Assembly (NCBI GenBank): GCA_964627275.1
Contig: CAZVHT010000036.1
Location: forward strand, 1-43,675
Origin: an uncultured Candidatus Saccharibacteria bacterium
GTDB taxonomy: Bacteria > Patescibacteriota > Minisyncoccia > Phycocordibacterales > UBA6065
Reading direction: 5' to 3'
DNA: 43,675 bases
Shown here: positions 13,467 through 43,029 of the stretch, piece after piece
Numbering within the stretch: position 1 is the first letter of the stretch
Layout: the number at the start of each line of letters is the position of its first letter
Notes under the pieces: model-generated
Databases searched by the model: none
What the model was told of the DNA's origin: nothing
What the model saw: the letters and a program-made list of their open reading frames with translations, nothing else
Translations under genes and position numbers: made by a program

Positions 13467-13573
13467 GTCTGGTGGTATGAGCTGTCGGAGCACGCTGTAT
13501 GTGCCTACTGGCACATCAGCTCGCTCTCGCGCCGTCGCGTTCCGAGAGTCTCCTCCAGCTCATACCACCAGAC
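13467..13573. repeat. nested palindromic intergenic element E1 (family 1)
   Basis: An 18-bp perfect outer stem, GTCTGGTGGTATGAGCTG (13467-13484) with CAGCTCATACCACCAGAC (13556-13573). The core is GGAGCACG plus inner hairpin ATGTGCC-TACT-GGCACAT plus a C/G/T-rich tail ending TCTCC. Confidence 0.85.
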
Positions 13574-13585
13574 CCATAGAAACAA

Positions 13586-14725
13586 GTGTCCAAAGATTAT
13601 TACAAAACCCTCGGTGTGGACAAAAACGCGTCGCCGGACGAGATAAAAAAAGCTTTCCGAAAAATGGCGCATGAGTATCATCCGGACAAGCAGGGCGGCA
13701 ATGTGGAGAAGTTCAAAGAAGCAAACGAGGCATACTCGGTGCTTTCTGACGAAAAAAAACGCAAACAGTATGATATGTTTGGTTCTGCCGGTCCTGGTGT
13801 AAGTGGTGGTTACGGCGGTTATGGTCAAGGCGCCGGCTTCAGCGCGGGCGACTTTGGTTTTGATTTTTCCGGCTTCAATCAGGACGGTTTTCAGCAGGGT
13901 GGATTTGGTCAGGGTGAATTTGAAGATTTTGATCTAGGCGATATTCTCGGTGGTATGTTTGGCGGTGGTTCGAGGCGTTCTTCTCGGCCTAGGCGTGGTG
14001 CCGATATATCGGTGGATGTAGAATTACCTTTCTCCGAAGCCATTTTCGGTGTGGAACGCACTTTCAAAATCCACAAAACTTCTGTTTGTTCTGAATGTGA
14101 CGGCACTGGCGCCAAAAGGGGTAGTAAAATGAAAACGTGTCACACTTGTGGCGGCAAAGGCAAAGTGACGGAAATTAAAAGATCTATCATAGGCTCATTT
14201 CAGACTAGTCATGTTTGTGGTACTTGCCATAGTTCTGGTAAAGAACCGGAAGAAAAATGCCCCATATGTCGTGGCACAGGCGTGACAGATCGCGATCAAG
14301 AAATAAAAGTAAAAGTTCCGGCCGGTCTAGAGAATGGTGAAACAATCAGGCTTCCTCTCGGCGGTGAGGCGGTCTCTGGCGGCCAGTCGGGGGATCTCTA
14401 CATAAAAGTTCATGTGAAAGAGCACCCGATATGGAGTAAAGAAAAACACAACTTGGTTACAAATATAGACGTGAAGCTTTCAGATGCATTACTCGGCGCT
14501 ACTCATACTCTCAAAACTCTCGATGGCGACATTCTGCTCAAAATTCCAGAAGGCACGGCCTTCGGCGAAATTCTGCGTGTCCGTGGCCGTGGCGTGCCCA
14601 CCACCGCTCGCGGTCGTGATGGCCACCGCGGGGACATTTTGGTACATATTCATATCACCATGCCAAAAAAACTTTCCCGAGAGGCGAAGAGGGCGATGGA
14701 AGAACTCAGAAAGGAGGGGGTGTAG
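13586..14725 (+). CDS. dnaJ: co-chaperone DnaJ
   Basis: J-domain (YYKTLGV...HPDK), a G/F-rich region and four CxxCxGxG zinc-finger repeats. GTG start. Confidence 0.95.
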
Positions 14726-14803
14726 TCAGATTTTTTTCACAATAATTGATGATATAATATACACATCTTGGTTTGGACTAGATGGGGAAGAATGTTTTTT
14801 ATA

Positions 14804-14832
14804 TTGACTATAAGTTTATCTTAAGTTAAACT
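14804..14832 (+). promoter_or_regulatory. candidate promoter of the TA pair, leaderless-type
   Basis: TTGACT (14804-14809), a 17-nt spacer, TAAACT (14827-14832), then 7 nt to ATG 14840. Confidence 0.55.
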
Positions 14833-14839
14833 TGGTTGT

Positions 14840-15187
14840 ATGAAAACAAAGAACATCATAGGTCTCAAAGTGTTGCGCGAAAATATGAATGCTTACATTT
14901 CACAGGTTGAAAAAGGCCAGTCTTTTCTCGTAATAAAAAAGTCAAAACCGGTATTCAAAATTACCCCAGTTGACGAATGGGGTGATGAAGGTGTGTGGAA
15001 AACGATCGTTGATTTTTCAAAAATTAGAAAAAATGGGGTGTCTATTGGAGAAGTAATTACTGCACTAGAAAAGTTGCGTGAACAAGATAAAAAAATTTCT
15101 GGCAAAAATGGAAGAATCAAAACGGGAGTCAATACTGCTTGTTTTGAAACGCGTCAAAGTGGGCGATTGGATGGGGTTAAACATTAA
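14840..15187 (+). CDS. Phd/YefM-like antitoxin
   Basis: The N-terminus LKVLRENMNAYISQVEKGQSFLVIKKSKPVFKITPV resembles Phd/YefM antitoxins. It lies directly upstream of, and overlaps, a RelE-like ORF. Confidence 0.55.
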   Translation: MKTKNIIGLKVLRENMNAYISQVEKGQSFLVIKKSKPVFKITPVDEWGDEGVWKTIVDFSKIRKNGVSIGEVITALEKLREQDKKISGKNGRIKTGVNTACFETRQSGRLDGVKH

Positions 15188-15317
15188 AAAACTCAAAGGA
15201 TACGATAATCTTTATCGCATCAGAATTGGTAGAACGAGAATTATTTTGAAAAAGGATTTTTATGGAATATCAATAAAATCTATTTCTCATAAGGATGATA
15301 AGACTTACAAGCTTTGA
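15078..15317 (+). CDS. RelE/ParE-superfamily-like toxin
   Basis: LKGYDNLYRIRIGRTRIILKKD resembles the RelE/ParE core strand pattern. The protein is small and basic. Start is GTG 15078 or ATG 15108. Confidence 0.5.
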   Translation: MNKIKKFLAKMEESKRESILLVLKRVKVGDWMGLNIKKLKGYDNLYRIRIGRTRIILKKDFYGISIKSISHKDDKTYKL

Positions 15318-15328
15318 ATAGAGAGGGT

Positions 15329-15357
15329 TTGACAATTAAAACCTACACTGATACCTT
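15329..15357 (+). promoter_or_regulatory. candidate promoter for an untranslated leader or small RNA
   Basis: TTGACA (15329-15334), a 17-nt spacer containing TGA, then TACCTT (15352-15357). This fits TGn-TAnnnT. Confidence 0.4.
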
Positions 15358-15490
15358 GTAGGTATGAATCCCATATTCATAAAAACAGTAAATACGGCCT
15401 TTATGTGGCATTATCACGCAATCCCAGAGAGGGCTTGTACTGCTTTTATGTCGCGTGTTTAAATTCGTATCGCGGAAATGAAATCAGAAA

Positions 15491-15516
15491 CCAGCCCTCT
15501 CCGGGGCTGGTTTTCT
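15491..15516 (+). terminator. rho-independent terminator immediately upstream of the HAD-like gene start
   Basis: CCAGCCC (15491-15497) pairs with GGGCTGG (15504-15510), followed by TTTTCTCTT. ATG 15520 follows 4 nt later. Confidence 0.7.
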
Positions 15517-15519
15517 CTT

Positions 15520-15951
15520 ATGAAAATAATTTTTGACTACAATAGAACAATTTTTGACCCAGAGACTGGAACACTATTTCTAGGAGTATTCGACATGCTC
15601 CTACGCCTCGCAAAATCAAACGAACTTTTCCTTGTAAGTAGAAACGAACCAGGCAGGGAAGATGTGCTCGATAGTTTTAATATCAAGAAATTCTTTAAAC
15701 GAATTGAATTTACCGACAACAAAAACGAGGAGCTTTTTCTTTCCATGATAGGCAAAGACAAAAACGTCATGATTGTAGGAGATAGTATCAAGGGAGAGAT
15801 AACTTTGGGAAACAAACTCAAACTCATCACGGTGAGAGTGTTGCAAGGAACTTTTGCTTCCCAAATTTCTACCTTTCCCGTCGAACAAGCCCAATTCGAA
15901 ATAAAAAATGTTACGGAATTGGAACGCATACTCAAACTCTATGAAAACTAG
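15520..15951 (+). CDS. HAD-superfamily-like hydrolase
   Basis: IIFDYNRTIFD is motif I-like, reading DxNxT rather than DxDxT. MIVGDSIKGEI is motif IV-like. The start is placed after the upstream terminator. Confidence 0.5.
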   Translation: MKIIFDYNRTIFDPETGTLFLGVFDMLLRLAKSNELFLVSRNEPGREDVLDSFNIKKFFKRIEFTDNKNEELFLSMIGKDKNVMIVGDSIKGEITLGNKLKLITVRVLQGTFASQISTFPVEQAQFEIKNVTELERILKLYEN

Positions 15952-16115
15952 CATCCAAAATTTTACATATTGGCATTTTTATCACACCGATTTTTACATC
16001 GAGGTTGTTGCGCGTGCTTTTCCAAGAGAATTTTTTGAGTAGATGAGCCTGCACAGTAGCCCCGAATGTCTCGAGGCTACATGTTCTTAAACAATCCAAT
16101 AGGGAGGATAGAAAT

Positions 16116-17384
16116 ATGCACGATATATTGCCAAAATTGCAGTCTGTCATCGATACGTCCGGCATCTGGCGGGGCGAAAGAGCGCGAACTCATAAGTTTC
16201 TGCTCTCACCCTCCGTCTACCGGATCACGGCGGCGCAAAGGAGGGAACTCGAGGGGCTAGGTGTCGCCTTGAACGAATGTCTGAGAGGGCTTTCGCACAT
16301 CGCAGTCGTTGCTCACGATCAGTCGGCTAATCACCGCGGGATGTGGATGAAGATCAGGCGGGTTTTCACGACAGGTGTTCCGAGTGTCTATCATGAGTTC
16401 CATGGGATGCGTATTCGCGATATACCGCGACTGCTCAAGCTTGATCTCATGGTGGACAATGAGGGTCGGTTTCGGATAGCCGAAATCGACGGACACAACA
16501 AACATGGTGTCGGGTATTCGACTCTCGCCATGAGGTTTCGGGATGCTCTGTATCCCGGATCGACTACTCTGCCCGGTGTAGTGAAACTCATCGCTGAAGA
16601 CGCTAAGCGGATGAAGCAGGAGGTGGTTAAAATCTTTTACGCCGACCAGGAAAGGTTTTACATTCCGGAGTTTGAGATCGCCCAGCGCGAAATCGAATCT
16701 CATGGGGTGAAATGCCGTCTCTTCTCGGAAATGGAAGCGACGAGCGATATGCTACAGTCAGGTCTCTTTCTCGACCTGCCGTTTCTCTACAAGAAACCAG
16801 ATCTCTATCGGGTAATCGGTCCGTCATACCACCCCGGTGTCGTCCGTTTTGTCATCCCTCCCAAGCCGTTTTTTGGTTCCAAAGGAGCGCTTGCGCTTCT
16901 ACGGAACGATGAAAAGGATCACAAGCTCGAGTCGATTCTTCATGCCTTCATAGATCGAGAATTCCTCGAGTTGGTTCGGGGATTTATTCCTGAGACAGTT
17001 CTTGTTGGACGGAAAGCGGCCGGAATCGATTTGGTGAGAAAACTTGTCGCGACCAAGCGATACGTTCTCAAGGAATCGGTTTCAAGCGGCATGAAGGGAA
17101 CTGTTTTCTCAACCGATTCCGATTTTGATGCCACTCTTGTTCGGGCGAGCGGTTCCAACATGAACTGGATTCTACAGGAAGAAGTGGTAAATCAGCCGCA
17201 GGAGTTTTCATGGTTTGGGGGAGACAATGGCTCTTCCGAACTGCAGACTTCGGCGGATTGGTTTATGCGAGTGACGGCTCACTATGTGAATCGCGATCTC
17301 GCCGACATCATTGTCACTGCCCGTAGGGACAAGGCAGTTCACGGCGGCAAGGACTGTATTCAGATGGGGACGGTTGTTGTGTAG
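16116..17384 (+). CDS. ATP-grasp-fold amide-ligase-like protein (glutathionylspermidine-synthase or circularly-permuted ATP-grasp-like)
   Basis: KLDLMVDNEGRFRIAEIDGHN, FFGSKGALALL, IPETVLV, RYVLKESVSSGMKGTVF and WILQEEV follow the motif order typical of GspS-like ligases. A strong SD (GGGAGGA) lies 8 nt upstream. The ORF is visibly GC-richer than its neighbours. Confidence 0.45.
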   Translation: MHDILPKLQSVIDTSGIWRGERARTHKFLLSPSVYRITAAQRRELEGLGVALNECLRGLSHIAVVAHDQSANHRGMWMKIRRVFTTGVPSVYHEFHGMRIRDIPRLLKLDLMVDNEGRFRIAEIDGHNKHGVGYSTLAMRFRDALYPGSTTLPGVVKLIAEDAKRMKQEVVKIFYADQERFYIPEFEIAQREIESHGVKCRLFSEMEATSDMLQSGLFLDLPFLYKKPDLYRVIGPSYHPGVVRFVIPPKPFFGSKGALALLRNDEKDHKLESILHAFIDREFLELVRGFIPETVLVGRKAAGIDLVRKLVATKRYVLKESVSSGMKGTVFSTDSDFDATLVRASGSNMNWILQEEVVNQPQEFSWFGGDNGSSELQTSADWFMRVTAHYVNRDLADIIVTARRDKAVHGGKDCIQMGTVVV

Positions 17385-17407
17385 TTAGTTCTTTGAAGTC
17401 AGATACG

Positions 17408-17435
17408 AGGGCTGATCTGTATCGGCCCTTTTATT
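17408..17435 (+). terminator. candidate terminator after the GC-rich ORF
   Basis: AGGGC (17408-17412) pairs with GCCCT (17425-17429), followed by TTTTATT. The stem is short. Confidence 0.35.
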
Positions 17436-17484
17436 CTGAACTCAATGAAATGCGTTCAGTATGATAATATAAACAAGTAAAACT

Positions 17485-18789
17485 ATGCCCAAAATAGAAC
17501 CCCGCACACTGAAGGGATTTCGCGATTTTTTGCCGGAGCGGCAGATTGTGAGGCAGAAAATGATCGAAACAATAAAGGCCTCTTTTGAGACGTTTGGTTT
17601 TGAGCCGCTCGAAACGCCGGCTTTGGAATATACTGAAATTCTCATGGGAAAGTACGGGGATGAAGGCGACAAGCTCATGTATCGCTTTCGAGACAATGGC
17701 GGTCGCGATGTGGCTCTGCGTTATGACCTCACTATACCTCTCGCCCGAGTGGTGGCGCAGTACGATAACGATATAAAAAAACCTTTCAAGCGCTATCAAA
17801 TCAGTCCCGTCTGGAGGGCCGAAAACACCCAAAAAGGTCGTTTTCGCGAGTTTTATCAGTGCGATGCCGACATCGTCGGTTCGACCAGTCCTCTCTCCGA
17901 TGCTGAAATCCTAGCTTTGAGCGCGAACACATTGTGTAAACTCGGCTTGGGAAATGGAGATTTTGTCATTCGCGTCAATTCCCGCGAAATTATTTCTGTT
18001 TTCTATGATTCTCTCAAACTTTCACCAGAACAAAAACAGATTGCTATCCGTATGGTGGACAAAATAGACAAAATCGGCAAACAGGGCGTGGAGGAAGAAT
18101 TGGAGAAAAATAATTTCTCGGCAAAAGATATAAAAACCACCCTTAATTTTGCCGGGACGAAAATAAATGACATAGAAAAAATCGGTACAGCCCAGAAATC
18201 TTTTCCAGTGATCAAAGACGCACTCAATAAACTTTCGGTAATGGTGGCCAAAGCTCTGGTTCTGGCTCCCAAAGCAAAATTTGTCATAGACTTTTCCATC
18301 GCTCGAGGTTTAGACTATTACACGGGCATGATTTTTGAAATTAGTCTCGTTCGCGCTCCGCAATTCGGTAGCGTTCTGTCTGGCGGCAGATACGACAATC
18401 TGATCGGCATGTTTTCAAACAAATCGGTGCCGGCAGTAGGCGCTTCTATAGGTTTGGACAGGCTCATTTCCGCCCTGGAAGAACTGGGACTCATAAAAGA
18501 ACAGAAAACTATCATAAAAGTGCTCGTTGTTAACTTTGACGAATCTCTCGCAGATGATTATTTAAAACTTGCCACAGAACTTCGAGAAGCGTATATAAAT
18601 ACCATGCTCTATTTTGAACCTACGGACCTCAAAAAACAGCTCTCATACGCCAGCGACAGAGGTATTCAGTATGTTCTCTTGTATGGTCCAAATGAAGCCA
18701 AAGAGGGTATGATAATCATAAAAAACTTGGCAAAAGGCACGCAGGAGAAAGTGACGATTAAAGGAGTAATAAATTACTTCAAAAAATAA
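17485..18789 (+). CDS. hisS: histidyl-tRNA synthetase
   Basis: GFRDFLP, LRYDLTIPLARV, FYQCDADIVG, GGRYDNL and AVGASIGLDRL motifs. Confidence 0.93.
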   Translation: MPKIEPRTLKGFRDFLPERQIVRQKMIETIKASFETFGFEPLETPALEYTEILMGKYGDEGDKLMYRFRDNGGRDVALRYDLTIPLARVVAQYDNDIKKPFKRYQISPVWRAENTQKGRFREFYQCDADIVGSTSPLSDAEILALSANTLCKLGLGNGDFVIRVNSREIISVFYDSLKLSPEQKQIAIRMVDKIDKIGKQGVEEELEKNNFSAKDIKTTLNFAGTKINDIEKIGTAQKSFPVIKDALNKLSVMVAKALVLAPKAKFVIDFSIARGLDYYTGMIFEISLVRAPQFGSVLSGGRYDNLIGMFSNKSVPAVGASIGLDRLISALEELGLIKEQKTIIKVLVVNFDESLADDYLKLATELREAYINTMLYFEPTDLKKQLSYASDRGIQYVLLYGPNEAKEGMIIIKNLAKGTQEKVTIKGVINYFKK

Positions 18790-19430
18790 TGAAAATTACA
18801 AAACTCGGACATTGTTGCTTACTCATAGAAGAAAACGGATTAATTATTCTTACCGATCCAGGTAGTTATTCAACAAAACAATCTACAATAAAGAACATCA
18901 ATGTCATTCTTATAAGTCATGAACATGTAGACCATTTACATGTTGATTCTTTAAAAGAAGTGTTAGTGAACAATCCCACAGCTCAAGTTGTCACAAATAC
19001 TTCTGTTGGAATGATTCTCGATAAAGAAGGAATACCTTATATATTAGTTGATCATGGTCAGTCTATTGTTAAGGCTGGTATAGAGATTGCAGGATTCGGA
19101 AAAGAACATTGGAAAATGTATAAGACAGTGAAACCTGTGGAAAACACCGCGTATTTCATAGGTAAAAAGCTTTTCTATCCAGGAGATTCTTTCTACGATC
19201 CAAAACAGTCGATCGATGTGCTCGCACTTCCTGTTGCAGGCCCTTGGGCAACTCTTACAGAAATAATTAATTATGGATTAAAACTTAATCCAAAAAAGGT
19301 TTTTCCAGTACATGATGGAATGCTTGTTTCCGGTAAGTTCGGACCCGCACATCGTTTACCACAACAAGAACTCACTAAAGCAGGGATTGAGTTCATAATA
19401 ATGAACGAGGGAGATCAAAAAGAATTTTAG
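18789..19430 (+). CDS. MBL-fold metallo-hydrolase
   Basis: HEHVDHLH (the HxHxDH motif). The start overlaps the hisS stop (ATGA). Confidence 0.75.
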   Translation: MKITKLGHCCLLIEENGLIILTDPGSYSTKQSTIKNINVILISHEHVDHLHVDSLKEVLVNNPTAQVVTNTSVGMILDKEGIPYILVDHGQSIVKAGIEIAGFGKEHWKMYKTVKPVENTAYFIGKKLFYPGDSFYDPKQSIDVLALPVAGPWATLTEIINYGLKLNPKKVFPVHDGMLVSGKFGPAHRLPQQELTKAGIEFIIMNEGDQKEF

Positions 19431-19459
19431 TAAATGAGAGTGGTTAAAAATATCTATTT

Positions 19460-19996
19460 ATGGTCTTAATAATCTTTGAAGCCCATGGTACAACGTTCGA
19501 CAACGAAGCACATTTGTCTTCTGGCTATAACGATGTAGCTTTATCGCCACTTGGAATACAGCAGTCAAAAGAAATGGGTGAGAGGTATGAAAAAGATCAT
19601 TTTGACGCAATTTTTTGTTCTGATCTGCGACGTGCATACAAAAGTGCTGAGATTGGTTTTGGTAGCAAATGGCTGATTATTAGAGATGCCCGGCTCCGTG
19701 AGTGTGATTATGGAGACTTTACGCAAAATCCGAGTGAAATAGTTGATAAGGAAAAACCACGGAGAGTAGAGATTCCTTTCCCTCACGGTGAAAGTTATAT
19801 TCAAACGACAGCTCGTATGAAAGATTTTCTCAAAGATCTTCTTAAAAACTACAATGATAAGAAAGTTATGATTATTGGACATCGTGCGACTCAATATGGT
19901 CTTGATCATCTTATAAACAAAGTGCCTCTTCTTACACTTACCACTAGTCATTTCAAGTGGCAGCCAGGATGGAAATATGAACTAAAAACAATCTGA
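19460..19996 (+). CDS. histidine phosphatase (phosphoglycerate-mutase-like) family protein
   Basis: The family layout is present: FEAHGTT...SPLGIQQ...SDLRRAYKSAEI...RECDYGDF...IIGHRATQ. The usual RHG reads AHG. Confidence 0.6.
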   Translation: MVLIIFEAHGTTFDNEAHLSSGYNDVALSPLGIQQSKEMGERYEKDHFDAIFCSDLRRAYKSAEIGFGSKWLIIRDARLRECDYGDFTQNPSEIVDKEKPRRVEIPFPHGESYIQTTARMKDFLKDLLKNYNDKKVMIIGHRATQYGLDHLINKVPLLTLTTSHFKWQPGWKYELKTI

Positions 19997-19999
19997 CTT

Positions 20000-27858: not shown

Positions 27859-27862
27859 AAAT

Positions 27863-27975
27863 AAAAGCAAAAGGAAAGCTCTTGTGGAGCACGGATATTT
27901 TCTTGCTAGAAAATATCCTCGGCTTCGTCGCCGTCGCTCCTCAGGCGTCTCCACGCGAGCTTTCCTTTTGCTTTT
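27863..27975. repeat. nested palindromic intergenic element E2 (family 1)
   Basis: A 19-bp perfect outer stem, AAAAGCAAAAGGAAAGCTC (27863-27881) with GAGCTTTCCTTTTGCTTTT (27957-27975). The core is GTGGAGCACG plus an 11-bp inner hairpin with a TGCT loop (27893-27918) plus a tail ending TCTCCAC. Confidence 0.85.
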
Positions 27976-27994
27976 AGTAGCTTTCAAAAGAGGG

Positions 27995-28006: not shown

Positions 28007-29422
28007 ATGCTTCGCCATATAACAGGCTTTTTTTCTAGGAGAAAGAAGGTAGTAACCAGATTTCCTCCCAGTCCTACCGGTTTTTTGCACATTGGTCGTG
28101 CCAGGACGGCGCTCTTTAATTATTTGTATGCTCGGCAAAATAGAGGCTTTTTTATTTTTCGCATAGAAGACACGGACAAGGCCAGATCAAAAGACGAATA
28201 TGAAAAAGACGTCATCAAATCTCTACACTGGCTAGGTTTATCGCATGACAATCACGAGGTTTGGCATCAATCAGAGAGAACCAATATCTATAAAAAATAT
28301 TTAGAAAATTTGATAAGAGAAGGCAAAGCGTATATCTCAAAAGAAGAAAATCTAAGGGAAGGGGAGAGAGCAGAAGTGATTAGATTTAAAAATCCAAATA
28401 TAAAAATAAAATTCACCGACCTCATCCGAGGAAATGTCGAATTTGACACCACCGAGCTCGGTGACTTTGTCATCGCTCGAGATATCAATGATCCGGTATA
28501 TCACTTTACTGTGGTTGTCGATGATTTTCTGTCTGGAGTCACTCATGTCATCCGTGGAGAAGACGGTGTTTCAAATACTCCGAGACAGATTCTCATAGAA
28601 CGAGCTCTGGGAGTGCCTCAACCTATATATGCCCACGTACCTCTCATCCTCGCAGCCGACCGGTCAAAACTTTCAGGACGACACGGAGCGATATCGGTCC
28701 GTGAATTTAGAGAAAAAGGTTATTTGCCAGAAGCATTGGTCAATTATTTGGCTCTGCTCGGCTGGAATCCAGGAACCGAACAGGAAATTTTTACTCTAGA
28801 CGAACTCGTCACCGCTTTCGATCTCTCCAAAGTTCAAAAGGGCGGGGCCGTATTTGACGAGAAAAAACTGCGCTGGATAAACAAAGAACACATAAAAAGA
28901 TTGTCAAAGGAGGATTTTGAGAAGGAATTAAAAAGGCGCATAGAGTCTTTGGAAAGGGTAAAAGATTTAGGCTGGAAAATATCAGATGAAATTATAGAAA
29001 AAATAGCTCCAGTGATTATAGACAGGATAGAAACGTACTCCGATATAGATAATATGATTACCGCGCAGGATCTGGATTTCTATTTTTCCGAGCCACAATA
29101 TGATTGCCTGTCCCTCAAATGGAAAGAAGAGCCGGATCTGTCTTCGGCGGAGAATCATTTGGATTTTATTAAATCTGAACTGGAAAAATTGCCGGAGAAA
29201 AATTGGAACGAAGAAAATATCAAAGCCATCGTTTGGCCGTACGCCGAAAATCAAGGCAGGGGAGCCGTCCTCTGGCCTCTCCGCTATGCTCTATCAGGCA
29301 GAGAAAAATCGCCGAATCCTTTTACTTTGGCTACTATTTTAGGCAAGAAAACAACTCTGAAACGCATAGAGAGGGCGCTCAAGTTATGTATTCCTATTCC
29401 CGTTGATGCAAACAAATCCTAG
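28007..29422 (+). CDS. gltX: glutamyl-tRNA synthetase
   Basis: TRFPPSPTGFLHIGRARTALFNY (HIGH region) and KLSGRHG (KMSKS-like). The longer ORF start at 27884 would translate through palindromic element E2. Confidence 0.9.
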   Translation: MLRHITGFFSRRKKVVTRFPPSPTGFLHIGRARTALFNYLYARQNRGFFIFRIEDTDKARSKDEYEKDVIKSLHWLGLSHDNHEVWHQSERTNIYKKYLENLIREGKAYISKEENLREGERAEVIRFKNPNIKIKFTDLIRGNVEFDTTELGDFVIARDINDPVYHFTVVVDDFLSGVTHVIRGEDGVSNTPRQILIERALGVPQPIYAHVPLILAADRSKLSGRHGAISVREFREKGYLPEALVNYLALLGWNPGTEQEIFTLDELVTAFDLSKVQKGGAVFDEKKLRWINKEHIKRLSKEDFEKELKRRIESLERVKDLGWKISDEIIEKIAPVIIDRIETYSDIDNMITAQDLDFYFSEPQYDCLSLKWKEEPDLSSAENHLDFIKSELEKLPEKNWNEENIKAIVWPYAENQGRGAVLWPLRYALSGREKSPNPFTLATILGKKTTLKRIERALKLCIPIPVDANKS

Positions 29423-30707
29423 AAAAATTCTCGGAGAATACAGAAAATTATTTGCGATCCTACTTTTTTTGACGGTCTTTTTTATTTCCCATTTTGTTTT
29501 TGCCGAGTCTGTGGAGGAGTTGCGACAGAAAATTGCCGATAACAATAAAAAAATAGAGGAAATCCAAAATCAGATAGAGCAGTACTCGATCCTCCTCAAT
29601 TCAACCTCGAAAGAAGCTCAAACCCTCAAAAACACTCTGTTGGTTCTGGAATTAACTCAAAAGAAATTGGAAGCGAATTTGACTTTGACTTCGACTCAAA
29701 TATCAAAGACAAAATTGACTCTCACCGAATTGAACGGCGACATAACTCTGGCTGAAAAAAATATAAATAAAGCTCTGGTGGTTATAAGTGAAAACATCCG
29801 TGCTACAAACATGACCGAATCACAATCGATTATAGAAGAATTGCTCGGCAGAAAGAGTATTTCCGAAACATGGGATTATGTAAACGCTATCCATACTATC
29901 CAAAGCCGGGTGAAAATTAATCTAGAAAATCTGCGCGATTTGCGGGCAACTCTGGCTGTGAAGAGGGATCAAGCGATAGGGGAGAAGACCAAACTGGAAT
30001 CATATCAAAGAAATCTCTCCGATCAAAAAAAAGTGGTTGTTACAACCAAACAAGAGAAAGATAAACTCCTCAAAGACACTCAAAGTAAAGAATCAAACTA
30101 TAAAGCTATTCTCACAGAGAAAATAAAGCAAAAGGAAACATTCGAAAAAGAACTTTTTGATTATGAGTCACAATTGAAAATCACTATTGATCCATCGGCC
30201 ATTCCCAGCGCTCGATCGGGAATACTTTCATGGCCTCTCGATAAAGTATCTATTACTCAATATTTCGGTAAATCGATTTCAGCTAGGCGACTTTATGTTT
30301 CCGGTAGCCATAATGGCATAGATTTTCGCGCTCCTATAGGCACGCCTATCAAGACGGCTCTATCGGGCATCGTGACAGATACAGAAGCGATTCGCACCAA
30401 GAGCGGCTGCCAGTACGGCAAATTCGTCCTCATAAAGCATCCGAATGGCCTTTCCACCATATATGGCCATCTCTCTCTGGTTTCCGTACAACCCGGCGAT
30501 ACGGTCATAACAGGCGATATCATAGGCTATAGCGGGGATACGGGGTATGCCACAGGGCCGCATCTCCACTTTGGTCTCTATGCTACCCAAGGTGTTCGTA
30601 TAGTTGATTCCAGTTCTCTGGGCTCATCCCGTTGCGCTGGTATAAAAACTATAGCCGCGCCTCCGGTCGCTTATTTGGATCCATCAGCCTATTTATCAAA
30701 GCTGTAA
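29406..30707 (+). CDS. M23-family metallopeptidase with an N-terminal coiled-coil (EnvC-like)
   Basis: Signal/TM segment and long coiled-coil. The C-terminus carries HNGIDFRAPIGTPI...GHLS...GDTGYATGPHLHFGLY. Confidence 0.88.
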   Translation: MQTNPRKILGEYRKLFAILLFLTVFFISHFVFAESVEELRQKIADNNKKIEEIQNQIEQYSILLNSTSKEAQTLKNTLLVLELTQKKLEANLTLTSTQISKTKLTLTELNGDITLAEKNINKALVVISENIRATNMTESQSIIEELLGRKSISETWDYVNAIHTIQSRVKINLENLRDLRATLAVKRDQAIGEKTKLESYQRNLSDQKKVVVTTKQEKDKLLKDTQSKESNYKAILTEKIKQKETFEKELFDYESQLKITIDPSAIPSARSGILSWPLDKVSITQYFGKSISARRLYVSGSHNGIDFRAPIGTPIKTALSGIVTDTEAIRTKSGCQYGKFVLIKHPNGLSTIYGHLSLVSVQPGDTVITGDIIGYSGDTGYATGPHLHFGLYATQGVRIVDSSSLGSSRCAGIKTIAAPPVAYLDPSAYLSKL

Positions 30708-31173: not shown

Positions 31174-31296
31174 TATTTACAAGAAAGGTATTATATAAAT
31201 ATCGTAGTTATATTTTATATTACCGAAAAGATATATTGTGCGACATAGATATGAGATAGATATAGACCCCTTCCCTACATATAATTTACAACAAAC

Positions 31297-31396
31297 AAAA
31301 AACAGCAGGTACAAAGTACGAGTCGTGAGGGAGAGGGGTTGCCCTTAGGCAAGGGTCCCCTCCCGAACGACGAGGATTTTGTACCTGCTGTTTTTT
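31297..31396. repeat. nested palindromic element E6 (family 2), likely bidirectional terminator
   Basis: AAAAAACAGCAGGTACAAA (31297-31315) pairs with TTTGTACCTGCTGTTTTTT (31378-31396). The GC-rich nested interior begins GTACGAGTCG. It sits between convergent genes. Confidence 0.85.
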
Positions 31397-31405
31397 TTGT
31401 TTTTA

Positions 31406-37372: not shown

Positions 37373-37375
37373 AAA

Positions 37376-37488
37376 AGCGGAGAAATATGGTTTTGGTGGA
37401 GTACGGAAGTTTTTTCTGCTGAAAAAACTTCCTCGTTTCCGGCGTCGTCACGCCTCCAAAGCCTCCACCAAAACCATATTTCTCCGCT
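37376..37488. repeat. nested palindromic intergenic element E3 (family 1)
   Basis: A 26-bp perfect outer stem, AGCGGAGAAATATGGTTTTGGTGGAG (37376-37401) with its exact complement (37463-37488). The core is GGAGTACG plus a 12-bp inner hairpin with a TGCT loop (37405-37432). Confidence 0.85.
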
Positions 37489-37489
37489 C

Positions 37490-37498
37490 TGATATAAT
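37490..37498 (+). promoter_or_regulatory. extended -10 box (TGATATAAT), 6 nt upstream of the recR ATG
   Basis: TGA-TATAAT-AAAAAG-ATG (ATG at 37505). Confidence 0.45.
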
Positions 37499-37504
37499 AA
37501 AAAG

Positions 37505-38137
37505 ATGGATCATTTGAATCGTTTGCACGAACTATTCCGGCAATTTCCCGGCATAGGGCCCAGGCAGGCCAAACGTTTTGTTTATTTTCTACTGGGCACG
37601 ACCGACGGCTTTCGCAATACTCTGGTCAAAGAGATTGGAGAATTAGCTTCACGGGTCACTGTGTGCTCATACTGTTTCAGGTTTTTTGACAGTAAAAATT
37701 CCAGCGCAAAACTCTGTTCCGTATGTTCCGATGACTCGCGAGACTCATTATCACTCATGCTCGTGGCAAAAGATGTAGACCTAGATGCCGTAGAAAAGAG
37801 CAAGGTATACGATGGGTATTATTTCATCCTCGGCAATCAGTTGTCTCTCATAGAACCGGAGCCTGAATCAAAAATCAGGACAAGAGAGCTCAAACAAACG
37901 ATCGAACGCCGAGTGAAAAGCGGATTAAAAGAAATTATTTTGGCCCTTTCCCTCAATAGTGAAGGAGAACATACGCGAGAGTTTGTGGAGGGTATCATAT
38001 CTCCCCTCGTCAAAAAACATTCATTGAAAGTATCCATTCTCGGCCGCGGACTTTCCACAGGCACGGAGCTGGAATATTCGGACACCGAGACCATCAAAAA
38101 CGCTCTGGCGGGCAGAAAAGAAGAAGTGGTTATGTAA
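37505..38137 (+). CDS. recR: recombination protein RecR
   Basis: FPGIGPRQAKRFVYFLL (HhH), a C4 zinc finger (CSYCFRF...CSVCSD) and a Toprim-like C-terminal half. Confidence 0.9.
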   Translation: MDHLNRLHELFRQFPGIGPRQAKRFVYFLLGTTDGFRNTLVKEIGELASRVTVCSYCFRFFDSKNSSAKLCSVCSDDSRDSLSLMLVAKDVDLDAVEKSKVYDGYYFILGNQLSLIEPEPESKIRTRELKQTIERRVKSGLKEIILALSLNSEGEHTREFVEGIISPLVKKHSLKVSILGRGLSTGTELEYSDTETIKNALAGRKEEVVM

Positions 38138-38290
38138 AAAAACCGGCAAAAATAGCATTCGAGAAAACGCTTCGCCCTCTCCTGCGAAGAGCTCGCTCCG
38201 TCCTCGGCGCTCGGACGTCAAGGACAGACCTTGACGTCTCCTAGCCTCGTGCCTGCGGAGTTTCTCGAATGCTATTTTTGCCGGTTTTTT
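38137..38290. repeat. nested palindromic element E5, likely bidirectional terminator
   Basis: A 30-bp perfect outer stem, AAAAAACCGGCAAAAATAGCATTCGAGAAA (38137-38166) with its exact complement (38261-38290). The GC-rich interior includes a 10-bp hairpin, GACGTCAAGG/CCTTGACGTC. The element exactly fills the gap between the two convergent stop codons. Confidence 0.85.
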
Positions 38291-39289
38291 CTACTCCTTC
38301 CTCTTCAAAACTTTCAAAACGGCGGCTTTTATGTGGGAAATACCCATGCCGTAGTGTTCCAGGAGTTCTTCTGGCCTGCCCGATTGGCCGAATTTGTCGC
38401 GGATGCCTATAAATTCTATGGGAACGGGCAGTTTTGCGGCCAGTAATTCGGCGACCGCGCCACCCATGCCACCGGCGATCTGGTGCTCTTCTACTGTGAC
38501 GATTGCGCCGGCTGATTTTGCAACTCGCAGTATTGTTTCTTCATCCAGAGGTTTTATGGTAGATAAATTGACGACAATGACGCCGATTTTTTCTTTTTCT
38601 AATTCTTTTGCTGCGAGCAGAGCTCGATAAACCAGAGCGCCAGTGGCTATGATGGCGACATCCGGCTTGCCTGTAATCGGTTCGAAATACACCCGCGCTA
38701 CGCCTATTTCAAAAGGCGTTTTTTCTGTCGTTATGACAGGGGTTTTTTCGCGAATCAGGCGTATATATGTCGGTGCCTTAGTCTGTGCAGCTGCTTCGGT
38801 TGCCTTTCTGGCTTCTATGGAATCGCAAGGAGAAATGACCGTCATATTCGGCAAAACGCGCATGAGGGCGATATCTTCTAAAGCTTGGTGGGTACCGCCG
38901 TCAGGTCCCACGGAAACTCCGGCATGAGAGCCTATAATTTTTACAGGCACGTCGTTGTAGGCGATTGTCGTTCTGATCTGTTCCCAATTTCGGCCAGGCG
39001 AAAACATAGCATAAGAAGATACAAAAGGAATTTTGCCCATAGAGGCCATGCCCGAAGCGACAGTTACGAGATTTTGTTCGGCCACGCCGATTTCAATGAA
39101 TCTCCTCGGAAATTTTTCTCTAAAAAGATGCATCTGGGTAGACTCCGTCAGATCGGCGCAGAGACCCACTACCCTATCGTCAGCCTCCCCTGCCGCCAAT
39201 AGTCCCTCGCCAAATCCTCTGCGGATCGGTATTTGTTTGACATCGCGGTCAAATATTTTCGGATTCAGTTTTTGAGAGAGAGAAATCAT
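38291..39289 (-). CDS. tkt: transketolase, C-terminal (pyrimidine-binding plus C-terminal domain) subunit
   Basis: GFGEGLL...FIEIGVAEQNLVTVASGMA...GPDGGTHQALEDIALMR. Confidence 0.88.
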   Translation of the reverse strand: MISLSQKLNPKIFDRDVKQIPIRRGFGEGLLAAGEADDRVVGLCADLTESTQMHLFREKFPRRFIEIGVAEQNLVTVASGMASMGKIPFVSSYAMFSPGRNWEQIRTTIAYNDVPVKIIGSHAGVSVGPDGGTHQALEDIALMRVLPNMTVISPCDSIEARKATEAAAQTKAPTYIRLIREKTPVITTEKTPFEIGVARVYFEPITGKPDVAIIATGALVYRALLAAKELEKEKIGVIVVNLSTIKPLDEETILRVAKSAGAIVTVEEHQIAGGMGGAVAELLAAKLPVPIEFIGIRDKFGQSGRPEELLEHYGMGISHIKAAVLKVLKRKE

Positions 39290-39301
39290 AAAAATATATT
39301 T

Positions 39302-40168
39302 TTATTCATGCTCGCTTCTTATTTTACCTCCCAATGTGCGAAGTTCCTTTAAAGCCATTTCCGCTTCTTCCCTATTCGGTGCTTTGCCGTGCCATTCGTA
39401 TTTGCGCTCGAATTCGGCGACCCCTTTACCTGGAATTGTGTGGGCAATAATAACCGTCGGTTTTTCAAAAATAGTTTTGGCTTCATCGAATGCCAGAGCG
39501 ATTTCGGCTATGGAATTCCCGTCTGTTTCTATGACGTGCCAGTTAAAAGTAATGTATTTATTGGCTAGAGGCTCTAGAGGCATGATGTCTTCTGTATATC
39601 CGTCTATTTGAATGTTATTTCTGTCAACCACCGAAACGAGATTATTTAATTTTTCTTTGCCGGCCAGCATTATGGCCTCCCATGTATTGCCCTCGTCATG
39701 CTCGCCGTCCGAAATGAGGCAATATATACGCCTTTGGGTTGATTTGCCGTTATCCATTCTATCCGCCAGAGCCATACCCACAGCCTGAGAAAGTCCACAA
39801 CCTAGAGGCCCTGATGAAGTTTCCAGCATGGGCAAATATTCTCTGTGAGGATGGCCTTGGAGCCGCGTGCCGAATTTGCGCAGAGTTTTCAATTCGCTCA
39901 CTGGAAAATATCCGGCATGAGCCATAGTGGCGTATAACACCGGAGCTATATGGCCGTTTGAGAGCACTAGTCTGTCGCGTTCTGGCCAGTCTGGCTTCTT
40001 CGGATTATGTTTTAGAGTGTGAAAATAGAGAGTCGTAAAGACATCAGCCATGCCGAGAGGTCCAGCTGTATGGCCAGAACCGGCTTCCACGAGCATTTCT
40101 ATAATCGACTGGCGGATGTTATTCGCTTTTATTTCCAATTCTTTTATTTTGGATTGGGTGATTATCAT
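39302..40168 (-). CDS. tkt: transketolase, N-terminal (TPP-binding) subunit
   Basis: AGSGHTAGPLGMADV...SNGHIAP...GPLGCGLSQAVGMA...SDGEHDEGNTWEA. Confidence 0.88.
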   Translation of the reverse strand: MIITQSKIKELEIKANNIRQSIIEMLVEAGSGHTAGPLGMADVFTTLYFHTLKHNPKKPDWPERDRLVLSNGHIAPVLYATMAHAGYFPVSELKTLRKFGTRLQGHPHREYLPMLETSSGPLGCGLSQAVGMALADRMDNGKSTQRRIYCLISDGEHDEGNTWEAIMLAGKEKLNNLVSVVDRNNIQIDGYTEDIMPLEPLANKYITFNWHVIETDGNSIAEIALAFDEAKTIFEKPTVIIAHTIPGKGVAEFERKYEWHGKAPNREEAEMALKELRTLGGKIRSEHE

Positions 40169-40587
40169 TATGCTCCTAGAAATTCTCTTCTCGTCACAAA
40201 TCTCTCGTCCAGCCTGTCGATTTTTTCGCTGATTATTCGGATAATTCTATTTTCCATACCACCCATCTTATTTTCAACTCCCACCACTTTCTCTTCAACC
40301 CCAATGATTCTTTTTTCAAGCATATTTACACCATCAACGACTTGGTTGACAGTATTTCGAGTATCAATCAAAAGAACTTGTGTTTCTGTTGTTCTAGCAT
40401 CAACCTTGGCTATGGCGTTCGTCATTTTTCTCTCTGATAGTCCGACTGCTTCGGCCATATTGTCCATTATCCTGTCTTCTGTCGTGGCAAGCATACTCAA
40501 GATTTTTGTTTCAGATTTTTTTACAATATCATTCACAACCGATTTCAGAACAGGAATAGTCACATAATTTTCTTTTTTCTTTTTCAT
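40168..40587 (-). CDS. hypothetical coiled-coil protein
   Basis: ORF in an operon with tkt. The stop overlaps the tkt start. It carries an internal repetitive E-x-[RK]-[IVM] pattern (VEEKVVGVENKMGGMENRI). Confidence 0.5.
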   Translation of the reverse strand: MKKKKENYVTIPVLKSVVNDIVKKSETKILSMLATTEDRIMDNMAEAVGLSERKMTNAIAKVDARTTETQVLLIDTRNTVNQVVDGVNMLEKRIIGVEEKVVGVENKMGGMENRIIRIISEKIDRLDERFVTRREFLGA

Positions 40588-40611
40588 GTTGTAGAGGAAT
40601 TTAATAGTAAT

Positions 40612-41328
40612 TCAAGAGACAGAACCAAGTTTCTCCAGTGTACCAGAAAAATCAGTCGCATTGAATAGATACGAGCCGACGACGAGCTCGTCTGCGCCGG
40701 CTTTTATGAGCAGTTTTGCCGTATCGATATTTACGCCGCCATCGACTGTCACAGAGAGAGACGGATAGAGAACTTTCAGAGAGCGGACGAGATCGAGAGA
40801 GCGTGGGTCGAATTTTTGTCCCTGAAAGCCGATTTGCGTTATGCCCATGACCTGGACGAAATGGATATCCGAAGCGATCAAATGAATAGAATCAGTAGAA
40901 TCAGATGGCTGTAGAGCGATACCGAGCTCGACGTCAAGAGGTCCGAGATCGTTTCTATGTTTTCCGTACTCTAGGACGATCTTTGCGAGCTCTGTTTCAT
41001 CAACGCTTGCTCTATGAACGATAATTTTTCCAGCACCGGCGGAAATAAAATCAGCAATTTTTTCATACGGATTTTTGACCATCAGATCAAATTCAAAATC
41101 AATTTCTTCCCAATGAGGCAGAGCTTTTTTTTGGGTCACTAGATCCTCAAAAATCTGATCATTTGTTTCTTTACCCGCTCTTTTTAGATATGGCCATGTG
41201 CGATTTGGTGCATAAACTCCATCACAGATGTCTATTTGCACGGATTTGGAGTGACCTGAAATCATGTCGAGCTTTTCCACGAGCTCGTCGTACGATTTTG
41301 GAAGTATAGCTGGAACGATTTCTGCCAT
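40612..41328 (-). CDS. ribulose-phosphate 3-epimerase-like (ribulose-phosphate-binding barrel) protein
   Basis: VPAILPKSYDEL...VQIDICDGVY...DLMV...QVMGI...VDGGVN follows the Rpe-family motif order. It sits in a pentose-phosphate operon context. Confidence 0.6.
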   Translation of the reverse strand: MAEIVPAILPKSYDELVEKLDMISGHSKSVQIDICDGVYAPNRTWPYLKRAGKETNDQIFEDLVTQKKALPHWEEIDFEFDLMVKNPYEKIADFISAGAGKIIVHRASVDETELAKIVLEYGKHRNDLGPLDVELGIALQPSDSTDSIHLIASDIHFVQVMGITQIGFQGQKFDPRSLDLVRSLKVLYPSLSVTVDGGVNIDTAKLLIKAGADELVVGSYLFNATDFSGTLEKLGSVS

Positions 41329-41361
41329 GATTTTGAAGTTATTAAATTAGAGTTACTCTAG

Positions 41362-41817
41362 TTATTTATGCGCGATATTGAAAAGCTTTTGAAGTCGGCG
41401 TTTATGCCTCTCATCTCCTGAAAAAGCTGTGGCGAGCCACAACGTCACAGCGCTCATAGCTTCTATTGGAGACATAAATCGCGCGCCGAGGGATAGCACA
41501 TTGGCATCATTGTGTTCTCGCGACAATTTTATGATGTCTTGGTTACCACCGTAATAGACCGCCGCCCGGACGCCGTAGAATTTATTGGCGCACATAGCTT
41601 CCCCCTCACCCGATGCGCCTATGACTATGCCTTTGGCGTTGCTCGGCTCGCGAGAAATTTCTTTTGCCGTAAGGGAAATAAAATCTGGATAGTCGTCTTC
41701 GGGATTGAACTGTTTTGGTCCCAAATCGCGCACATCGTGGCCGGCCAAGGACAGTCTCTCCGCGAGAAATTTCTTCAGTTCAAATCCGGCATGGTCGCTT
41801 GAGATAAAAATACGCAT
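41362..41817 (-). CDS. rpiB: ribose-5-phosphate isomerase B
   Basis: MRIFISSDHAGFELKKFL...GIVIGASGEGEAMCANK is typical of the RpiB/LacAB family. Confidence 0.88.
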   Translation of the reverse strand: MRIFISSDHAGFELKKFLAERLSLAGHDVRDLGPKQFNPEDDYPDFISLTAKEISREPSNAKGIVIGASGEGEAMCANKFYGVRAAVYYGGNQDIIKLSREHNDANVLSLGARFMSPIEAMSAVTLWLATAFSGDERHKRRLQKLFNIAHK

Positions 41818-41820
41818 AAA

Positions 41821-42858
41821 TCAAATATATTTCGCAGTTTTCATAACATGGTCTACGAGGGTGTATGTATACCCCATTTCATTGTCATACCACGCCAAAA
41901 CTTTGACCAAATTGCCGTCCACCACGCGGGTGAATTTGAGATCGGCGATGGAGCCGTGGGTATTGCCGAGAATATCCGAAGAAACCAGTTCTTCTTCGGT
42001 TACGGCAAAAATGTTTTTCCAGCGAGACGTGCCGGAGGCTTTTTTGAGAGCGATGTTTATTTCATCTACTGTAGTATTTCTCTTTGCGATAAAAGTGATA
42101 TCAACAATAGATCCGGCGACGACAGGAACACGGATAGATATACCATCAAATTTATTTTCGAGTTGGGTGAGCGCTTTTGTGGTGGCGATAGCCGCACCAG
42201 TAGATGATGGCACGATGTTTTGGGCCGCGGCCCTGCCCTCCCTCCAGTCTTTTTTATTTGGCCCATCAACGATTCCCTGACTGGCCGTGTATCCATGGAC
42301 AGTATTCAAAACCGCTTTTTCAATTCCTATGGCTTCATCCAGAATTGCCAGAATTGGTGATCCGGCATTTGTGGTGCATGAAGCGTTTGAGGTGATTTCG
42401 CATGTTTTTAGTTTATCCTCATTTATACCCATGAGAACAGTTTCGCCCGGAGTGGAGGAATCACCCTTTGCCGGAGCGGTGATGACGACTCTCTTTGCGC
42501 CGACATCCAGATGAACTTTGGCTTTGTCATACGAAGTGAAAAGTCCAGTTGATTCGACAACGACATCTATATTTAATTTTTTCCATGGAAGCTCTCTCGG
42601 TTCTCTCTCACTCAAATAAAAAATCTTTTTGCCATCTACGAGGAAATATGAATCACTGCCTTCTACGACTGTCACATCAAAAGAAAAAGTTTTATAGACA
42701 GTGTCGTATTTTAGGAGGTACGCCATGTTTTTTATGTCGCCCAGATCGTTTATTGCCACAATTTCAATTTCCTCGTGTTCGCGGGCTACTTTGAAAAAAG
42801 CTCTGCCAATTCTGCCGAATCCATTTATAGCCACTCTAATTTTTCTTTTTGAGAACAT
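41821..42858 (-). CDS. gap: glyceraldehyde-3-phosphate dehydrogenase
   Basis: RVAINGFGRIGR, SNASCTTN and WYDNEMGY. Confidence 0.95.
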   Translation of the reverse strand: MFSKRKIRVAINGFGRIGRAFFKVAREHEEIEIVAINDLGDIKNMAYLLKYDTVYKTFSFDVTVVEGSDSYFLVDGKKIFYLSEREPRELPWKKLNIDVVVESTGLFTSYDKAKVHLDVGAKRVVITAPAKGDSSTPGETVLMGINEDKLKTCEITSNASCTTNAGSPILAILDEAIGIEKAVLNTVHGYTASQGIVDGPNKKDWREGRAAAQNIVPSSTGAAIATTKALTQLENKFDGISIRVPVVAGSIVDITFIAKRNTTVDEINIALKKASGTSRWKNIFAVTEEELVSSDILGNTHGSIADLKFTRVVDGNLVKVLAWYDNEMGYTYTLVDHVMKTAKYI

Positions 42859-42879
42859 ATTTATGAAGTTATGTTATGA

Positions 42880-42888
42880 ATTATAACA
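42880..42888 (-). promoter_or_regulatory. candidate extended -10 box (TGTTATAAT on the minus strand) for the gap operon
   Basis: The reverse complement of ATTATAACA lies about 21 nt upstream of the gap ATG and abuts element E4. Confidence 0.4.
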
Positions 42889-43029
42889 GAAAGCGAAATA
42901 CATGTTTTGGTGGAGCACGCCGTCCCCGCCTGCTGGCGGGGCGTCTCGTTCTCGGACGCCTCTTGAGAATCTGTCCCCGACAGATTCTCACCTCCGAAGG
43001 TCTCCACCAAAACATGTATTTCGCTTTCT
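42888..43029. repeat. nested palindromic intergenic element E4 (family 1, largest copy)
   Basis: A 28-bp perfect outer stem, AGAAAGCGAAATACATGTTTTGGTGGAG (42888-42915) with its exact complement (43002-43029). The core is GGAGCACG, a CCCCGCC-TGCT-GGCGGGG hairpin and an extra 11-bp hairpin, GAGAATCTGTC/GACAGATTCTC (42965-42989). Confidence 0.85.

Follow-up and report, generated by a model that had tools for sequence, protein, structure and literature searches.

The window analysed here is positions 1 to 43,675 of contig CAZVHT010000036.1, from an uncultured Candidatus Saccharibacteria bacterium (assembly GCA_964627275.1). Its gene content is that of housekeeping: alaS, grpE-dnaK-dnaJ, hisS, a murG-like gene, gltX, an M23 peptidase gene, L9, an S41 protease gene, cysS, dnaB, recR, a split transketolase gene (tkt), rpe, rpiB, gap and a merR-like gene. 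The window also carries a single IS110-like island. Between the housekeeping genes lie four copies, E1 to E4, of what we call Family 1: DNA repeats of 100-140 bp built as a hairpin within a hairpin, the outer stem being long and near-perfect. A first-pass annotation of the window had reported these four elements with a shared core, and both inspection of the sequence and a repeat finder confirmed them. Their arms are the longest close-range inverted repeats in the window (24, 28, 26-36 and 28 nt, respectively; 89-100% complementary). All four elements fold 10-14 standard deviations below dinucleotide shuffles on both strands, as palindromes must.

All four copies read on the + strand. E1 (13467..13573, 107 bp) lies between dnaK (stop codon 13457-13459) and dnaJ, and scored 77.7 bits (E 2e-18) with the covariance model described below. 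Its 24-nt arms (13467-13490 and 13550-13573) are 92% complementary; the stem consists of 18 perfect bp, a 2-nt internal loop and then GGAG/CTCC. The inner hairpin, P2, pairs 13494-13505 with 13510-13520 around a TACT loop (13506-13509) and has a bulged T. It is followed by P3, in which the lower stem CTCTCG/CGAGAG (13524-13529 and 13543-13548) encloses P3a, CGC-CGTC-GCG (13530-13539), and a 3-nt TTC bulge that precedes CGAGAG. E2 (27862..27976, 115 bp, 67.3 bits) lies between the murG-like gene, a GT28 gene (stop codon 27856-27858), and gltX. Its arms (27862-27889 and 27949-27976) are 28 nt long and 93% complementary, its P2 (27893-27903 and 27908-27918) carries a TGCT loop at 27904-27907, and its P3 is degenerate, with CGCCGTCGC at 27929-27937. 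E3 (37376..37488, 113 bp, 76.4 bits) separates dnaB (stop codon 37370-37372) from the recR promoter. Here the arms (37376-37401 and 37463-37488) form 26 perfect bp and can be extended to 36 nt at 89%; P2 (37405-37416 and 37421-37432) has its TGCT loop at 37417-37420, and P3a is GGCGT-CGTC-ACGCC (37441-37454). E4 (42888..43029, 142 bp, 49.5 bits) sits between the divergent promoters of gap (-) and the merR-like gene (+). Its arms (42888-42915 and 43002-43029) form 28 perfect bp and its P2 (42919-42930 and 42935-42945) has the TGCT loop at 42931-42934. The P3 of E4 is broken by a nested 25-nt hairpin (42965-42989), which is itself perfect (GAGAATCTGTC-CCC-GACAGATTCTC).

The gap between stop codon and element is 3-7 nt for E1 (dnaK), E2 (murG-like) and E3 (dnaB), a correction of the 4-8 nt given previously. 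E3 and E4 have a stem of about 22 nt in common (GAAATA..TG.TTTTGGTGGAG); the sharing had been noticed before, but not its extent, which was put at 12 nt. Seven occurrences of the motif GGAGYACG were counted in the window, where 1.3 are expected; the four that lie in the elements share the + strand. The suspicion that the elements generate spurious open reading frames (ORFs) was well founded: the true ATG of gltX is at about 28008, 3' of E2, and both the GTG-start extension of gltX (27884) and the ORFs that span E1 are artefacts which the elements produce.

From these and further copies the Family 1 unit can be defined. It is a GC-rich core of ~65 nt that forms a three-way junction, plus a closing stem of at least ~20 bp. 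On the 5' side the outer stem often ends in TTT and is followed by GGAG, which forms P1 with CTCC, and then by YACG. P2 is a hairpin of 10-12 bp with a TGCT loop; it usually contains a bulged T and commonly reads GGA(T)ATTTTTC-TGCT-GAAAAAT-TCC. Next come TC, the first strand of the lower stem of P3, CGC-CGTC-GCG and a 3-nt bulge; the lower stem then closes with its return strand, and the core ends in (T/C)CTCC before the outer stem resumes. The TGCT loop of the inner hairpin, TACT in E1, had been described correctly. The C/G/T-rich tail that was said to follow it is a real stretch, but it forms the second hairpin, P3; CGTCG, which was attributed to every copy, is missing from E4, where P3 holds the 25-nt insert. 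A pseudoknot between ACG of the junction and CGU of the P3 loop was considered and rejected because the two do not co-vary; the copy at L185:804 (L numbers denote loci from other genomes) has ACA together with CGTC.

What the stems conserve is pairing, not sequence, as had been proposed, and covariation tests bear this out. On a MAFFT alignment, which is blind to structure, P2 showed two-sided changes at nine of its ten pairs and was 96.9% paired. Over the whole structure 85% of positions were paired, compared with 42-55% when the 3' partners were slid, and none of 500 shuffles reached the observed covariation score. RNAalifold independently predicted P2 and P3a. In a larger alignment of 34 copies, which was fitted to the covariance model and is hence biased towards structure, 89% of cells were paired against 43-58% in the slid controls, with two-sided changes at 10/10 pairs of P2 and 3/3 pairs of P3a. 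The P2 pairs of these 34 copies comprised 335 Watson-Crick pairs, one G·T and no A·C. Counts for the outer arms were 800 Watson-Crick pairs, 29 G·T and 32 A·C; neither strand shows an excess of wobble. Individual comparisons between copies that are orthologous or nearly so gave the same picture: the gap-merR copies of L003 and L201 differ at eight positions including three compensated double changes, and E2 differs from L201b by the compensated GATAT/ATATC versus GACAT/ATGTC. Conservation peaks at the core and falls outward, and the terminal inverted repeats differ between copies.

It had been claimed that the arms differ between copies and still pair, which is true, but they do not vary independently of the repeat unit: within a subfamily, 20-30 nt of arm are shared. 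This holds for E3 and E4, for a group from L185, L191, L031 and L036, and for two copies in L209 of a sister family (Family 3, see below). The six copies L185:4306-4376, L185:4452-4521, L191:6517-6588, L031:9994-10063, L036:9887-9955 and L021:10983-11056 have arms of ~30 nt in common. They also contain a conserved internal loop whose motif, (T)CTCGAC/TCAAC, is the same on the two strands and directly oriented, and their 5' arm carries TCGACA with GATATT 18 nt on, which is promoter-like.

How widely Family 1 occurs was established by successive searches. A first strict regular expression run on recR loci missed true copies; it was replaced by a loop-anchored scan, which added copies in L002, L003 and L060, and then by a covariance model for which 13 copies in a MAFFT alignment (A4) served as input. 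In 1.36 Mb, where the genomes outside the window are represented by fragments only, this model found 37 copies at E < 0.005, all of them intergenic; its search of the window gave no fifth copy. Family 1 was present in 17 of 80 recR loci. Density is one copy per 11 kb in the window versus about one per 40-60 kb in the recR loci, a roughly five-fold spread, and copies may cluster locally (four within 10 kb in L185, three within 2.4 kb in L201). A degenerate pattern run on 120 metagenome loci found nine true copies, its other matches being chance hits in high-GC contigs. Outside the window, about 35 further copies lie on contigs of Paceibacterota (Patescibacteria) whose RecR is 50-84% identical, including genomes labelled Zambryskibacteria. 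The 65-nt core recurs with its specific loops and bulge at unrelated slots of distant genomes, at E-values of 1e-10 to 1e-21. Truncated copies were found in L016, L019 and L020, and inverted doublets at L185:4306/4452 and L037:4709/5315.

Two of these loci deserve a remark. In L037 the two copies (4709-4778 on the + strand and 5315-5390 on the - strand) stand head to head with the common flank TTAGTGGTGATTT and bracket ~540 bp that hold only an 83-aa ORF, an arrangement that looks like a composite or bracketed cassette. L060 (DATGWK010000047.1) is labelled as a Candidatus Nanoarchaeia archaeon and has one Family 1 copy; its RecR is bacterial and 52% identical to that of the window, from which together we conclude that L060 is probably a mis-binned Patescibacteria contig.

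Family 1 is previously undescribed, being absent from Rfam, from IMG/VR and from the literature searched. Each of the three tests that the first-pass annotation had set as able to refute it (a search without additional copies, a shared core lacking statistical support, identity with an Rfam family or a known MITE) spoke for a family that is genuine and not described before. Rfam 15 gave no match to the whole window at the gathering threshold, and its E-value mode, applied to E1, to the span from E3 to the sister element I3 and to L037, returned only noise resembling miRNA precursors, far below threshold. Two patterns searched in the IMG/VR viral contigs found no true copy, only chance matches in high-GC DNA. 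In the literature that we searched, no REP-like (repetitive extragenic palindrome), REPIN-like or MITE-like (miniature inverted-repeat transposable element) family has been reported for Patescibacteria, and queries on structured RNAs yielded nothing relevant. An exact-protein contig look-up with DnaJ and DnaK of the window returned no record, and a scan of the window for tRNA and tmRNA found none. Logan contigs from four metagenome runs, placed on 27-43.7 kb of the window, end within elements, at 27914 in E2 and at 37415 and 37425 in E3. Because short-read contigs of the source metagenomes stop inside E2 and E3, the palindromes probably fragment assemblies of such genomes. The joints of the Logan contigs over the same 27-43.7 kb were noise from related organisms and gave no usable evidence of excision or inversion.

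The orientation of Family 1 relative to genes is close to random. With the element set to +, the neighbouring genes of the 33 classifiable copies were ++ in 11 cases, -- in six, +- in eight and -+ in eight. Codirectional, convergent and divergent gene pairs thus occur at 2:1:1, the ratio expected if copies were placed in spacers at random. Every gene of L185 is on the + strand, and the copies there run +, -, +, -. Near-random orientation and the missing G·U excess weaken the RNA role that the first-pass annotation implied; judged from sequence, the constraint on Family 1 does not resemble the one acting on a transcribed RNA. Simple scans for promoters and terminators do not flag the elements. 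RNA-seq runs were sought for the window and for L185, and none turned up. An extended -10 box, TGATATAAT, follows directly 3' of E3, its final base 7 nt from the ATG of recR. Such a box (TGnTATAAT or TACAAT) precedes recR at 37489-37507 in the window and also in L001, L003, L005-L012, L209 and L212. In many relatives it lies only 5-10 nt from the ATG, a spacing that suggests recR transcripts that are leaderless or nearly so and start right after the hairpin.

The closest view of Family 1 came from comparing orthologous slots. RecR relatives place the window in Patescibacteria, within class Paceibacteria/Parcubacteria, the best species representatives having 84-90% RecR identity, and at this level of identity we compared L001, L003, L201 and, obtained via RecR homologues, L209-L218. 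The same slots may be filled by either of two sister families of nested palindromes, Families 2 and 3. Where the window has E3 between dnaB and recR, L001 keeps a remnant (the right arm and a stub of the left arm, with CTCCAC retained) and L003 a 13-bp hairpin remnant whose loop is still CTCCAC. At this slot L209 has a Family 3-like core and L212/L213 a Family 2 (I7-type) core in reverse; L214 and L217 have no element, only gaps of 17 nt and 5 nt. Between recR and tkt the window has Family 3 (I3) and L209, L212 and L217 have Family 1. The gap-merR slot holds E4 on the + strand in the window, the same core subtype inverted in L003 and L201, and Family 3 in L209. Downstream of merR there is Family 2 in the window (I7) and in L003, a Family 3-like element in L209 and an E2-type Family 1 copy in L201. 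The L9-S41 slot is an empty 17-nt spacer in the window and is occupied by Family 1 in L003. Finally, gltX and the M23 gene overlap in the window and are separated by a Family 2 copy in L003, where an arm provides a new ATG; comparison of L003:1060-1110 with 29406-29500 of the window shows that the right arm of this copy contributes the M23 start codon and that the N-terminus is shorter than in the window. Simple hairpins occupy some of these slots in relatives, for example in L214.

Subtypes roam between slots. The E1 type (TCGGAG, TACT loop, CTCCTCC) is found at dnaK-dnaJ in the window and at recR-tkt in L212, and the E2 type at three different slots, with copies elsewhere in L201, L212 and L217. 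In L209 two Family 3-type copies have cores that are 97% identical and arms that are ~85% identical with compensated differences; from the sequences, this pair is best read as recent intragenomic copying in the sister family. Because the arms of these two copies are still ~85% identical with compensated differences, the copied unit takes in the stem, and only the outermost ~10 bp look site-specific. One such site-specific end is TTTCT..GCT, which stands before the recR promoter in four genomes.

The sister families share the nested layout. Family 2 is found in the window at 31290-31403 (I1) and 43406-43501 (I7), at L003:983-1077 and L003:16397-16503, and in the dnaB-recR spacer of L212. Its arms, flanked by an A-run and a T-run, read AAAAAACAGCAGrTACAAAGT, its GC-rich core is GGGAGAGGGGTTGCCCTTAGGCAAGGGTCCCCTCCC in the I1 type with a variant in the I7 type, and it uses the same kinds of slots as Family 1. 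A 1-kb insert at the I1 slot in L003 was considered as an autonomous Family 1 element and rejected; it encodes a 296-aa ORF with no Pfam match. Family 3 occurs in the window at 38137-38290 (I3), at L002:4954-5115, in the dnaB-recR spacer of L209 and at L209:15449-15602. I3 lies between the convergent recR and transketolase genes and has perfect 30-bp arms around a 94-nt core, which is 88-90% identical to the copy at the gap-merR slot of L002/L209. I1, I3 and I7 have A-runs and T-runs like those of bidirectional terminators. The motif TCTGTCC stands at the apex of the 25-nt hairpin of E4 and again at the apexes of the I3 and I7 cores.

The IS110-like island (1322-3380) contains one gene (1935-3284) with weak matches to DEDD_Tnp_IS110 and Transposase_20. 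Upstream of it are ~600 nt of non-coding, repeat-containing DNA with GGCTCT.TAGGCAGACCAATTTC twice, which may be a bridge-RNA region, and downstream is a classical terminator (3343-3372). A functional link between this island and the palindromes had been floated. We found no support for it: no Family 1 sequence or half-element lies at or beside the island ends.

We put the probability at about 0.5 that Family 1 is a mobile, non-coding DNA repeat of Paceibacterota, palindromic and interspersed in the manner of REP and MITE elements. We favour this reading because Family 1 is multi-copy, strictly intergenic, indifferent to context and orientation, and patchy among close relatives, and because a subtype may be shared across slots and inversions, nested insertions and deletion decay are seen. 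New copies would land between genes, typically just 3' of a stop codon and ahead of the next promoter, and often in or on an existing hairpin flanked by A/T, which would give rise to palindromes nested like Russian dolls. Once a copy had settled, its arms would diverge fast while staying complementary, its interior could flip through recombination between the arms, and small extra hairpins might insert, as in E4, until the copy was lost through partial or complete deletion. Copying would take place at the DNA level, probably with a folded single strand or cruciform read by an enzyme, or else by template switching between hairpins. HUH transposases recognise REP and IS200/IS605 hairpins as folded single strands. 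An enzyme of this kind would explain the fixed loops and bulge, and stems that are compensated and free of wobble would follow if arm mismatches were corrected in an extruded hairpin. If the host gains anything, for instance a hairpin at transcript ends or an insulator between operons, that gain would be secondary.

Several observations weigh against mobility. No transposase or other mobilising enzyme was identified in the genome fragments at hand, no clean insertion junction was seen, and no direct repeats of a target-site duplication are visible at the arm ends, which are A/T-rich and hard to delimit. The window copies are old: when E1-E4 are aligned with MAFFT, mean column identity is 60%, which is not what a recently active MITE would show. 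E1-E4 share one orientation, which has a chance of 1 in 8, and the 11 sense versus six antisense codirectional copies leave room for a weak bias. The core with its loops and bulge is conserved over contigs of 32-56% GC and ~50% RecR divergence. Such conservation exceeds that of most selfish repeats, and a conserved host partner could account for it. The core might be the recognition module of a conserved Paceibacterota enzyme system, either a new kind of DNA mobility at hairpin apexes, which would put interchangeable GC-rich modules into palindromes between genes and keep the two arms matched, or one that cuts a new class of RNA from long duplexes, with Families 1-3 as alternative cargoes; we regard this proposal as tentative and rather doubtful.

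Because the core is conserved over so wide a range of GC content, a role in the host, as RNA or as DNA, has to be weighed. As a structured RNA, within a 3' or 5' region of an mRNA or under its own promoter, the core would be a module for protein binding or processing, for instance one freed by RNase III cutting in the outer duplex, or a stabiliser of 3' ends. A three-way junction with strong covariation, invariant UGCU and CGUC loops and a conserved bulged U is typical of recognised RNAs, and the sequence is kept across distant Paceibacterota. Many copies also start 3-7 nt past a stop codon, and 19 of the 25 copies with at least one gene upstream are sense to an upstream gene. When pairs are counted by transcribed strand, G·T outnumbers A·C by 18 to 11, which is not significant. 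Nevertheless, eight of the 33 classifiable copies lie between divergent genes and six are antisense to both neighbours, the L185 copies alternate in orientation among genes of one strand, and both orientations of one subtype occur at an orthologous site. Close relatives have unrelated cores or nothing at the same slot. G·U is nearly absent from P2 (1 in 340). Covariation is lacking between ACG of the junction and CGU of the loop, as L185:804 illustrates, and Rfam has no match. A host RNA is on balance unlikely. The indifference to orientation and intergenic type would be at home in a host DNA signal, a cruciform or single-strand hairpin bound by a conserved chromosomal protein that acts in organising the nucleoid, as a sink for supercoils between transcription units, in replication or in recombination. 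The exclusively Watson-Crick pairing of the stems, the balance between G·T and A·C, the very long and perfect arms in this genome and the class-wide conservation of the core would fit it as well. We nevertheless hold a host DNA signal to be quite improbable: other families or nothing fill the same slots in close relatives, deletion remnants and truncated copies are common, and copy density differs about five-fold between genomes.

The elements might also be ordinary intrinsic terminators or hairpins at operon boundaries that are alike by common descent or because composition converges where GC-rich stems stand in AT-rich spacers. They do sit after stop codons and before extended -10 promoters, the sister elements I1, I3 and I7 do resemble bidirectional terminators in their A-runs and T-runs, and some of the same slots do hold simple hairpins in relatives such as L214. 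Convergence is ruled out because the 65-nt core recurs in unrelated slots of distant genomes, and the covariance-model census largely excludes the plain-terminator reading. On the strand of the upstream gene, no T-run follows the stem of E1, E3 or E4; E4 and seven more copies, those between divergent genes, have nothing upstream to terminate; and a simple terminator scan does not call the elements. The first-pass annotation was right to doubt a pure terminator role, and we consider the whole explanation very unlikely. Riboswitches or leaders, CsrA sites and uptake sequences were rejected on sequence or context.

The genomes of Patescibacteria are very small and streamlined, and repetitive or selfish DNA is thought to be scarce in them. 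In one lineage, most intergenic slots are now seen to be filled by nested palindromes of 100-150 bp, which belong to at least three families and make up ~2% of the window. Family 1 is conserved throughout the class, although its copies turn over among close relatives. It can serve as a marker for typing strains at a fine scale, explains spurious ORFs and, probably, assembly breaks, and is a tractable case of how palindrome arms stay perfectly matched while diverging. The enzyme that recognises it, if found, could yield a new mechanism of mobility or RNA processing.

Among known systems, integron attC sites resemble Family 1 in conserving structure over sequence, in their extrahelical bases and variable apex, and in standing just after a stop codon. 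Identity with attC was rejected, since Family 1 has neither R'' nor R' sites (RYYYAAC and GTTRRRY) and its neighbours are the housekeeping genes dnaK, dnaJ, murG-like, gltX, dnaB, recR and gap, not cassettes, with no integrase nearby. The GC clusters of yeast mitochondria are GC-rich palindromic modules in AT-rich spacers, nested and polymorphic in presence and absence among close relatives. They resemble Family 1 in all these respects, but they belong to another domain of life, and their units are 30-50 bp without a conserved three-way junction. Correia elements (CREE/NEMIS), ERIC, BOX, RUP and MITEs are, like Family 1, non-coding, intergenic and 100-150 bp long with long self-complementary ends. 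Like Family 1 they may be co-transcribed by accident and give duplexes of a size suited to RNase III; to our knowledge, the mobilising enzyme of several of these families is not known. They differ in keeping conserved terminal inverted repeats, and Correia and RUP also in a TA target duplication, whereas in Family 1 the termini vary, no duplication is visible and the centre is the most conserved part. A MITE would be expected to share its ends with an autonomous IS; the IS110-like island does not, and no other candidate was seen. A further comparison is with REP, BIME and REPIN sequences, which are mobilised by RAYT. Like Family 1 they are extragenic, multi-copy, imperfect palindromes with a short conserved motif 5' of the hairpin and an extrahelical base, and they too show mosaic site occupancy between strains and inverted doublets. 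No RAYT (Y1 HUH transposase) domain was found among the 29 window ORFs scanned. Compared with REP, the Family 1 unit, in which a stem of 20-30 bp surrounds a 65-nt three-way junction, is larger, its motif is GGAG-YACG instead of GTAG, and its arms are hypervariable yet compensated. We place Family 1 among the bacterial interspersed palindromic repeats, where it is unusual in three ways: its centre, with the three-way junction, fixed loops and bulged T, is most conserved and its ends least; its arms diverge fast yet stay matched, perfectly up to 30 bp in this genome; and its slots are contested by no fewer than three unrelated cores.

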